From an uncultured Actinomycetes bacterium (GTDB taxonomy: Bacteria; Actinomycetota; UBA4738; HRBIN12): a DNA stretch of 64,000 bases. The notes under the pieces were generated by a model. It saw only the letters and a list, made by a program, of their open reading frames with translations. It was not told where the DNA came from and did not search any database. A program made the translations under genes and the position numbers. Below are positions 58,105 through 60,837 of this stretch, in pieces; the stretch's first letter is position 1; each line of letters opens with the position of its first letter. Location of the stretch: contig CAVYBY010000012.1 in assembly GCA_963766935.1 (NCBI GenBank), positions 20,945-84,944 of the forward strand, read 5' to 3'.

Positions 58105-58623
58105 TCAGGCCTCCGAATCGACCCCGCGATCGATCTCCAGGGCCGACCTGGCGGCCCGCCGGGCCATCTCGGGTCCGTACCCACGCCGCAGCAGGAAGGA
58201 GGTCAGCCGGCGGAAGGCTACGGCCGGCTCCAGGGAGCCCATCCGTTTGGCCCGCCGGGCGGCGAGGTCCCGCGCCCGTTCCTCCTCGTCGTCCCCGAGC
58301 GACGCGAGCGCCCCCGCCGCAACCGCCGGCGTGACCCCGCTTCGGGCCAGCACCGAGCCCACCAGGCGCCGTCCCGACCCGCGGGAACCGACCTCGTGTT
58401 CGATCACCCGCCGGGCGAACGCCTCGTCGTCCACGAGGCCCACCCCCTCGAGCCGCTCGAGCTCGCCCTCGACTTCCTCCGCGTCGAAGCCCGCCCGCAG
58501 GAGGCGCGTCTCGAGCTCCCGGCGGCTGCGCGGCCGGACGGCGAGCAGCCCGAGTGCGCGATCGTGACAGCTGCGAGCGCCGGGCCGTTTCGCCGTCGTC
58601 TTCCCGCCGAATTGGCCCGTCAC
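58105..58623 (-). CDS. recX: Regulatory protein RecX
   Basis: 172 aa from the GTG at 58623 (GTGA overlap with the recA stop). It has three-helix RecX repeats and is intact. Confidence 0.8.
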
Positions 58624-60837
58624 GACCGTTCGGCCTTGGCTTTGTCCTTCGCGGCTCCCGCCGAAGCCGCGGGCTCGCCCTCCGGATCGACGACCACGTC
58701 CTGAGGCACTTCGATCGGCTTGTCGTCGTCCTCACCGAAGTTCGACAGGCCGACGGCTTCCCGAATCCGCCGCTCGATCTCGTCGCGGAGCTCGGTGTGC
58801 TCGGCAAGGAACGCGCGGGCGTTCTCGCGGCCCTGGCCGAGCTGCTCGCCCTCGTAGGTGAACCAGGCGCCGGCCTTCTTGATGATCTCGAGGTCGACGC
58901 CCACATCGATGAGCGAGCCCTCTTTCGAGATTCCCTTGCCGTACATGATGTCGAACTCGCACTGGCGGAACGGCGGCGCCACCTTGTTCTTGACGACCTT
59001 CACCCGCGTCCGCGAACCGACGACCTCGGTGCCGTCCTTGAGGTTCTCGATCTTGCGGACGTCGAGACGGACCGACGAGTAGAACTTGAGCGCCCGCCCC
59101 CCGGTGGTCGTCTCAGGTGAGTTGTGCACGACGACGCCGTCGACGAGGTAGGTGTGCGATCCCTCGACCTCGATGTCGTACCGGTGCATCGACGCGAGTT
59201 GGGGGGCTTGCGGCCGAATTTCGATGATGGGCATCGGCGAGAGCTCGTTCCGCATGGGCCGGAACGAACCAGGTTCGACCGCGAACCGGTCCCGGAACCT
59301 GGCAACAGCTTGTACTGCCATCGAGGGATGCATGAAGCGGAGCGACGATGGCATGCAGCTTCGCGGTCTCGTCCTTCGGGAAACTGGAGGACGGCCTTCC
59401 CGGCTCGGTCGATCAGCTTCGGCCCGTAGCCCCCAGGTGTCGGCCAGACACTGGACCAGGCGGATCCGGCTGGTCGGCTCGATCGCCTCGATGCAGATCT
59501 CGGACCGGCCGCTGCCGTCGCGGGTTCGGCGCCTGGACCCCCTTGGCGCGCACGGAGAAGGTCCCGTCGTCCATGTACCAGATTGCCAGCGCCAGCGGGG
59601 TCAGCCGCTTTAGATAGTCCTCGCTCAGGACCTTCTTCCCGCCGATGTAGACGGCTTCTCGAAGATCGGCGAGCTCGGCGAGCGGCGGGAGGTCATGAGA
59701 GACTGCACCCCGCGCGTCGGTCGACCGAGCGACGTTCCGATGTTCGCGAACAGGGACGCCTTCCAGTCGGCATACTCGGCCTGTCGCGCGCCGTGGCCGA
59801 AGCGGTAGCGGCCGGCGAGGCCGCTTCCGGGTCGGTGACAGAGCGCCGTCGCCCATGAGGCCGCCAAGGATGACCTCCCACTGGAAGTCCGACAGGCGGA
59901 TGGGGGACGGCCGTCATCACTCGATCCCCGACCTCAGCTCTTGCGCTTCGCGCCAGCCGCCTGGGGTCAGGATCTTGTGGTTCGGGGTACAGCCGAACTG
60001 GACCGTCCCGCTGGCGTCGGCTCGCGCACTCTGAACTGCATGAAGCTCTCCGTCGTTCCCGTTGTCGAACCAGTTCACGATCCTGCCGGGGGACGACCTC
60101 GCCACTGCTCGGGGTCGTAGGACAGGACCTCAACGGGCATCGCGCTGGTTGACGATCTTGCCGATCTTCTCGTGCGAGCCGTCGGCGAGCGTCACTGGGT
60201 GTCGCATAGAAAAACACCCGAACATCACGCCGATTTTTTCGCGGAGCTGGTTGATGAAGATCGCCGTCGTGTCGAACCGCGAGAGCGAGCCGTTCAGCTT
60301 CCGCATCGCCTGGGACATCAGACGGGCCTGGAGCCCGACGTGGGAGTCGCCCATCTCGCCCTCGATCTCGGCCCGCGGGACGAGCGCCGCCACCGAGTCG
60401 ATCACCACGAGCGCGAGCGCGCCGGACCGCACGAGCATGTCGGCGATCTCGAGCGCCTGCTCGCCGGAGTCCGGCTGCGAGACGAGCAGCTCCTCGATGT
60501 TGACCCCGAGCGCGCGGGCGTAGGTCGGGTCGAGCGCGTGCTCGGCGTCGATGAACGCCGTGATGCCGCCGTGCCGCTGCGCCTCGGCGATGATGTGCAG
60601 GCACACGGTGGTCTTGCCCGAACCCTCGGGCCCGAAGACCTCCATGATCCGCCCGCGCGGGATGCCGCCCACCCCGAGCGCAAGGTCGAGCGCGAGCGAT
60701 CCCGTCGGGATGATGCCGATCCCCTCGTTCATCGGGTGCTCGCCGAGCTTCATGACGGCGCCCCGGCCGAACTGCTTCTCGATCTGCTGGAGCGTTACGT
60801 CGAGCATCTTGTCGCGGTCCACGTGATCCTCCTTCAC
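58620..60837 (-). pseudogene. recA: Recombinase RecA interrupted by an intein. The exteins are intact, but the intein reading frame is broken (in-frame TGA plus multiple frameshifts).
   Basis: The N-extein is 207 aa up to ...[13 protein letters not shown], and the C-extein starts [21 protein letters not shown]... in a different frame. The total length is 3n+1. Confidence 0.85.
59121..60216 (-). mobile_element. RecA intein with a LAGLIDADG homing-endonuclease domain, inserted at the [12 protein letters not shown] site and frameshifted
   Basis: It starts with Cys ([24 protein letters not shown]) and ends ...VVHN before extein Ser. It has splicing block B TPNHKILTPGGW and the LAGLIDADG motifs ILGGLMGDG and AIWYMDDG. 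Its length is 365 codons plus 1 nt. There is a TGA at 60130 to 60132 after 28 intein codons, and the pieces are scattered over all three frames. Confidence 0.75.

Follow-up and report, generated by a model that had tools for sequence, protein, structure and literature searches.

An intein in the DNA-binding loop of RecA from an uncultured actinobacterium, with frame breaks that are very probably consensus errors

Does a recA gene whose intein falls out of frame in the deposited sequence point to a cell without functional RecA, or to a fault in the sequence itself? The question is raised by the window analysed here, a stretch of 64,000 nucleotides (nt) from an uncultured Actinomycetes bacterium (GTDB lineage Bacteria; Actinomycetota; UBA4738; HRBIN12; GenBank assembly GCA_963766935.1, contig CAVYBY010000012.1, positions 20,945 to 84,944), in which recA, read from the minus strand, is split by an intein that cannot be translated through as deposited. 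A preliminary description, made from the sequence alone, left open whether the break is real, leaving RecA nonfunctional, or an artefact. The evidence assembled here strongly favours the artefact and speaks against a nonfunctional RecA: the frame breaks are very probably single-base errors of the consensus, mostly spurious insertions, in a recA intein that would itself be intact and able to splice. Coordinates, given as positions of the window, are collected in Table 1.

By its sequence, the insert is a class-1 intein of the canonical type that carries a LAGLIDADG_2 homing endonuclease and is placed in the L2-loop motif of RecA. The signatures of the class are all present, namely Cys1, the block B motif TPNH, a terminal HN and Ser+1; the boundaries, read in the same way in the preliminary description (Cys at the first position, VVHN followed by SPETTTGG), recur as Cys and HN/S in 149/149 relatives. 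Two LAGLIDADG motifs had likewise been claimed, and both were located, with their acidic residues kept. Once the frame was corrected, the product matched Pfam LAGLIDADG_2 over its full length (1-168/168, E 1.8e-32, with 113 bits where the cut-off is 25), a model against which the uncorrected intein fragment alone reaches 59 bits, while Pfam Intein_splicing was aligned from end to end (1-155/155) at 34.1 bits, the cut-off of that model being 35.8. The corrected intein also matched the structures of the PI-MtuI mini-intein in phmmer (E 1.9e-16) over blocks A-B and F-G, and its endonuclease part is weakly I-SceI-like. When the two exteins were joined in silico, Pfam RecA was matched end to end (1-262/262, E 2.3e-138), together with RecA_C, and the insertion is therefore precise.

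The insertion point falls in the L2 DNA-binding loop and is flanked by the Gly that closes VMFG and the Ser that opens SPETTTGG (hereafter the G/S site). It is common to 149/149 parsed full-length relatives, in the context ...G[VIL]x[FY]G / SPE.T, and the named mycobacteria among these are Mycolicibacterium novocastrense and three Mycobacterium sp. genomes (L063-L066), which bears out the insertion site given in the preliminary description. RecA inteins have been catalogued in Actinobacteria, Cyanobacteria and Proteobacteria, 56 of them in one survey (PMC4760082), and those of M. leprae and M. tuberculosis are unlike in size and sequence and occupy different locations (PMC5874633). The M. tuberculosis-type site could be anchored independently through ten relatives with two inteins, the second of which follows VKVVKNK, starts with CLAEGT...FDP.TG.THRIEDVV and aligns to PI-MtuI from residue 1 (E 2e-51). 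The window runs uninterrupted through VKVVKNK/V at 59003-58962, so its intein occupies a site other than that of M. tuberculosis, in agreement with the preliminary description, and a PI-MtuI-type (RecA-a) allele is ruled out. PI-MtuI ('RecA-a'; PDB 2IMZ, 2IN0, 3IFJ) has in common with the window intein a RecA host, a homologous Hint domain and an endonuclease of the LAGLIDADG type, whereas its homologues are inserted 47 residues further downstream, behind VKVVKNK, precede a C-extein that begins with Cys instead of Ser, and are larger.

We take the G/S site to be the M. leprae-type site (InBase 'RecA-b'; Davis et al. 1994; Saves et al. 2000), an allele that Saves and colleagues reportedly found also in M. 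chitae, M. fallax, M. flavescens, M. gastri, M. shimoidei and M. thermoresistibile. The intein of M. leprae RecA, PI-MleI, is 365 aa long, a size similar to the ~361-363 codons of the corrected window intein, and M. leprae-type inteins resemble the latter further in their RecA host, in the VMFG/SPETTTGG point, in Cys +1, terminal HN and Ser +1, and in the possession of a LAGLIDADG domain. The mycobacterial G/S-site inteins (L063-L066) are 52% identical to the window intein over the full length (E ~1e-115). What sets the window apart from the M. leprae type is its non-mycobacterial, Acidimicrobiia-like host, an identity of only ~50% with the mycobacterial members, and the breaking of the deposited open reading frame (ORF) by single-base indels.

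Relatives were sought in GTDB species-representative genomes and in metagenome contigs, with a hand-stitched translation of the intein, and among 5.8 billion proteins. The first two sources yielded 133 and 220 related stretches, and the third 1159 proteins at E <= 1e-30, the best being 77% identical; among the matches listed, all carry the precomputed RecA domain PF00154 and most were named RecA by their source. Among the relatives, 160 loci were examined at the level of the locus, giving 151 full-length matches, 149 of which were parsed, and in 151/151 full-length relatives the intein is free of stops and uninterrupted. The closest, at 72-78% intein identity, belong to metagenome-assembled genomes (MAGs) of unclassified Actinomycetota and Acidimicrobiia, in keeping with the non-mycobacterial actinobacterial host proposed earlier. 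The RecA precursors of environmental Actinomycetota and Acidimicrobiia (PF03161 + PF14890 inside PF00154; L001, L002, L082, P0001-P0120) have the same site, boundaries and architecture, and differ from the window in that they are uninterrupted ORFs, none of them more than 78% identical to its intein. A sibling of the same species was absent from the three collections, in which the best intein reached 72-78% and the best RecX 66%; judged by these identities, the window intein is a separate lineage without a sequenced sibling and a new member of the G/S-site family.

Ten of the relatives hold two inteins in one recA (L023, L028, L032, L057, L069, L070, L097, L100, L128, L141), in each case one at the G/S site and one PI-MtuI homologue after VKVVKNK (for L070, E 2e-51 to PDB 2IMZ), in precursor ORFs of up to ~1000-1675 aa as stop-to-stop reads. 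The second intein of L100 goes out of frame, and that of its near-identical twin L097 stays open. Single frameshifts were also seen in the G/S-site intein of two other assemblies, a long-read-style 'contig_' MAG (L043, ~10863-10918) and a JGI contig (L153, ~1200), neither at the density found in the window.

As deposited, the locus contains no continuous ORF with both exteins: the insert has a length of 3n+1, and its homology is spread over all three frames. Because of a first one-base insertion near 60141, the frame of the N-extein meets a TGA after 28 intein codons, and it meets four stops in all, the three others lying at 59919-59914 and 59415-59413. The early TGA, the use of three frames and the length of 365 codons plus one nucleotide had all been noted before and hold; the broken frame, however, goes beyond a few breaks, since at least 13 single-base indels are needed to explain it. 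Plain tblastn blurred the points at which the frame switches and was replaced by frameshift-aware protein-to-DNA alignment, with four intact relatives singly and then with a profile of 134 distinct inteins. The four relatives called for 11-15 frame corrections within the intein (the two closest needed 13) and for none in either extein. The strict profile solution has 13 events, of which 10 insert and 3 delete a single base, with a net change of +7, and 1096 - 7 = 1089 nt correspond to 363 codons.

With a lower frameshift penalty, 15-19 events were called, compensated pairs being added. This lenient alignment recovers motifs of the family exactly from other frames (QYKLLP at 59317-59300, PPTR at 59205-59194), and the true number of indels is for that reason more likely 15-19. 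The first called event lies 75 nt inside the N-junction and the last ~72 nt before the C-junction; the nucleotide contexts of the events as a whole are mixed, some events being plausible homopolymer extensions and others not. Near 60207-60195, where MRHP stands against Y-x-T-R in the family, a compensated pair may exist, although none was called there even at the lenient penalty. Selection for restoring the frame was considered as an origin of the compensated frameshifts and rejected, as the stretches in shifted frames still encode conserved residues, the N-extein frame contains stops, and a series of mostly +1 events restores the frame trivially at every third.

Table 1. Positions of the recA locus, of the frame breaks in its intein and of the surrounding indel-rich patch in the 64,000-nt window.
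Feature	Position	Strand	Remarks
recA	60837-58620	minus	N-extein + intein + C-extein
recA N-extein	60217..60837	-	207 codons, GTG start; no frameshift; GC3 0.96
KIGVMFG	60237-60217	-	N-extein end
Intein	59121..60216	-	1096 nt (365 codons + 1); Hint splicing domain split by LAGLIDADG_2 homing-endonuclease domain
Cys, first intein residue	60216-60214	-	Right after KIGVMFG
First in-frame TGA	60130..60132	-	After 28 intein codons
Block B motif TPNH	59977..59988	-	Column conserved in relatives' profile
First LAGLIDADG motif	59839..59871	-	ILGGLMGDGAL
Second LAGLIDADG motif	59557..59589	-	
VVHN	59132-59121	-	Intein end; Ser of C-extein next (VVHN S at 59132-59118)
recA C-extein	58620..59120	-	SPETTTGG... 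to TGA; no frameshift
SPETTTGG	59120-59097	-	C-extein start, directly after VVHN
Intein-less recA junction			...ATCGGCGTGATGTTCGGG joined directly to TCACCTGAGACGACC...
All called intein indels, span	59193..60141	-	
Strict insertions	60141, 60107, 60085, 60060, 59899-59914, 59826, 59529, 59423, 59383, 59337	-	
Strict deletions	60001, 59933, 59728-59734	-	
Lenient extras	59318, 59298; 59210-59193	-	59318 insertion with 59298 deletion
LexA (SOS) box	60965-60979	+	TCGAACACGTGTTCG; 128 nt upstream of recA start
recX	58105..58623	-	Intact; two Pfam RecX helical-domain matches; GTG start overlaps recA TGA stop
Indel-rich patch	54354..62131	.	~7.8 kb; 15 single-base frameshifts besides intein (14 insertions, 1 deletion), by intact orthologues from relatives' flanks
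miaA frameshifts	54623, 54412, 54354		
miaB frameshifts	56186, 55657		
rny frameshifts	57545, 57520, 57492, 57122		
ligT/thpR frameshifts	61287, 61219, 61164, 61124		61219 is a deletion
cinA frameshifts	62131, 61854		

Whether such damage reflects decay or error can be read from what accompanies it. After correction the intein translation has 0 stops, and it deviates from the family at 1/81 columns conserved in >=95% of sequences, where the 134 intact relatives have a mean of 1.1 deviations (sd 1.1), at 3/124 columns at >=90% conservation (relatives' mean 4.4) and at 11/178 at >=80% (mean 12.2). Neutral decay with ~15 indels predicts 8.6-26 deviations at the 81 columns if substitution:indel ratios of 3-10 are assumed, which gives P(<=1) values of 2e-3 to 1e-10. 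Codon-position composition is preserved as well, GC content at positions 1/2/3 being 0.65/0.47/0.86 in the corrected intein and 0.62-0.66/0.43-0.47/0.85-0.90 in the inteins of intact relatives. Every event is exactly 1 nt long, and insertions outnumber deletions by 24:4 when intein and neighbours are pooled (binomial p = 1.8e-4). Real bacterial pseudogenes show a deletion bias together with a spread of indel sizes, a bias said to have been described by Mira, Ochman and Moran in 2001. The exteins (1122 nt) contain 0 indels, for which P = 2e-7 at the rate of the intein, a result incompatible with neutral decay of the whole gene. Neither an excess of substitutions at constrained sites, nor nonsense codons, nor a loss of codon-position structure, nor a mixed, deletion-biased set of indels, as expected of a pseudogene, was found in the corrected intein.

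The damage is not restricted to recA. Comparison with intact orthologues revealed further single-base frameshifts in miaA, miaB, rny, ligT/thpR and cinA (Table 1), genes that stand in an order, dapF-miaA-miaB-rny-recX-recA-ligT-cinA, conserved among the relatives. Outside this patch, lexA, a SIS-domain gene, hflX, dapD, an aminotransferase gene, dapE and dapF (47-54.2 kb) each gave one unbroken alignment segment; frameshift-aware alignment of three of these seven genes returned no events other than one doubtful call at the very C-terminal end of dapF, and 62.9-64 kb shows no frameshifts either. A reference-free test, which would miss compensated pairs, measured throughout the window the distance from the end of the coding signal in third-position GC content (GC3) to the in-frame stop, and placed the large run-on anomalies between 54.3 and 62.2 kb; beyond these, one 47-nt segment at 17.3 kb and a pair of segments near 20.3-21.2 kb alone stood out. 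In the 56 kb around the patch there is thus no clear sign of frameshifts. The Viterbi frame tracer behind it was too coarse within the intein, which it called non-coding, and was useful only for this run-on test. As one-base insertions run through conserved housekeeping genes without a substitutional component, a locally unpolished consensus is indicated, and the damage points to error and not to decay because it consists of indels only, is biased towards insertions and is confined to the patch.

These findings bear on three explanations in which the indels would be real. Genuine pseudogenisation, with 13-19 true frameshifts, no spliceable precursor and an organism deficient in RecA, would account for the four stops that the deposited ORF has in the N-extein frame and for neighbour genes that are broken too, as in reductive genome decay, and natural recA frameshift mutants are documented (PMC2483709). 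It is nonetheless very improbable, for substitutions at conserved sites are not in excess, codon-position GC is intact and no stop survives correction; the exteins show no damage, yet a dead intein would have freed them from constraint just as much; the events, 86% of them insertions, run opposite to the deletion bias of pseudogenes; the damage occupies one 7.8-kb patch of the 64-kb window; and neither lexA nor recX nor the SOS boxes are damaged. Less probable again is that a living Acidimicrobiia-like cell acquired ~30 single-base, insertion-biased mutations within a 7.8-kb tract without any substitutions. Such a burst, if true, would have put out of action the recA intein along with four or five housekeeping genes beside it and would point to a localised process of insertional hypermutation, which to our knowledge has not been described in bacteria. 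The least credible of the three is that the locus is a redundant second copy, decaying while a functional recA is kept elsewhere in the genome: a contiguous patch of broken housekeeping genes would fit a degenerating copy, but the segment stands in the conserved gene order from dapF to cinA, as in relatives, its flanks pass seamlessly into intact genes, substitutional decay is absent with exteins and recX perfect, and RecX is a singleton in ~15 billion proteins, so that a second copy is not on record.

Consensus error is itself not free of difficulties. The source contig is a singleton, with a best intein relative of 77-78% identity and a RecX relative of 66%, so that error is something we infer; frameshift mutants of recA do occur in nature, as in BCG Russia with its single 1-nt insertion (PMC2483709); and only some of the events fall in homopolymers, with no sequencing-platform signature identified among them. 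The density is also uneven, the intein having ~15 indels against 3.3 expected from the background of the patch (P ~2e-6) and the exteins with recX 0 against 4.9 expected (P = 0.008), and a model of uniform error therefore fails to explain it. A plausible cause of errors concentrated in this way, though less likely than not, is a polymorphism between intein-plus and intein-minus recA alleles, which would have left the intein with few or mixed reads and hence as the worst-polished part of a region already thin. The hotspot of indels covers almost exactly the intein and spares both exteins, the endonuclease motifs, conserved across the family, fit continuing mobility, and many intein-bearing recA relatives are partial, on contigs of ~2 kb, where assemblers may break. 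Against such a polymorphism stand the indels of miaA, miaB, rny, ligT and cinA, which it leaves unexplained and which would call for a broader fault in the quality of the local sequence. The proteins P0001-P0120 are mostly partial (~480-630 aa) and lie on contigs of only ~1.7-3 kb, which hints that metagenome assemblers often break at or near intein-bearing recA.

If the deposited breaks are consensus errors, the cell would contain an uninterrupted intein ORF of ~361-363 codons, translated together with RecA. Splicing would be expected to follow the standard four-step class-1 pathway, with attack by Cys1, transesterification to Ser+1 and then cyclisation of the terminal Asn, and its product would be a normal, SOS-regulated RecA. 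The endonuclease could home into intein-less recA alleles, whose junction is given in Table 1, and the conservation of its motifs throughout the family is consistent with homing and with ongoing mobility.

The regulatory setting of the gene agrees with the earlier account of an intact SOS box and an intact recX, the latter with its Pfam RecX domains; the RecX of the window is identical to the protein P0121, which is the singleton among ~15 billion proteins referred to above. A scan for LexA boxes gave 19 matches at <=1 mismatch, where 2.7 are expected by chance. Three LexA-box-like palindromes, GCGAACACGTGTTCG, TCGAACGCGCGTTCG (minus-strand reading) and TCGAACGTGTGTTTG, lie at 46932-47010 (+), just upstream of lexA, which is itself intact at 47052-47648 (+) with Pfam LexA_DNA_bind and Peptidase_S24, and the SOS circuitry therefore looks complete. 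A further perfect LexA-type box is found at 24492-24506.

Two features met in the frame tracing lie apart from the recA patch. The GC3 coding signal near 20.3-21.2 kb is interrupted by ~350 nt of atypical codon-position composition (20338-20691), and since the segments on either side (18,997-20,337 and 20,692-21,157) have one frame and the next stop (18989) in common, the stretch 18,997-21,157 looks like one long minus-strand ORF and not a frameshift. Within the 1.6 kb at 40812-42391 that the tracer called non-coding are four tRNA genes (41570-42302, minus strand; Rfam RF00005, 62-74 bits).

The untranslatable intein ORF is thus best regarded as no real biological feature, and the biological weight of the intein itself is small, RecA inteins at the G/S site having been known since the 1990s. 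The locus serves as a caution, as a public MAG contig may hold a patch of ~8 kb with ~30 spurious single-base indels, in which automated annotation would wrongly call recA, miaA, miaB, rny, ligT and cinA pseudogenes. The intein is the spot worst affected, and mobile elements that are polymorphic in presence and absence may degrade the quality of a metagenome consensus. For the family, G/S-site RecA inteins turn out to be very common in Acidimicrobiia-like Actinomycetota, and in environmental Actinomycetota they are abundant, with >350 DNA loci and 1159 proteins.

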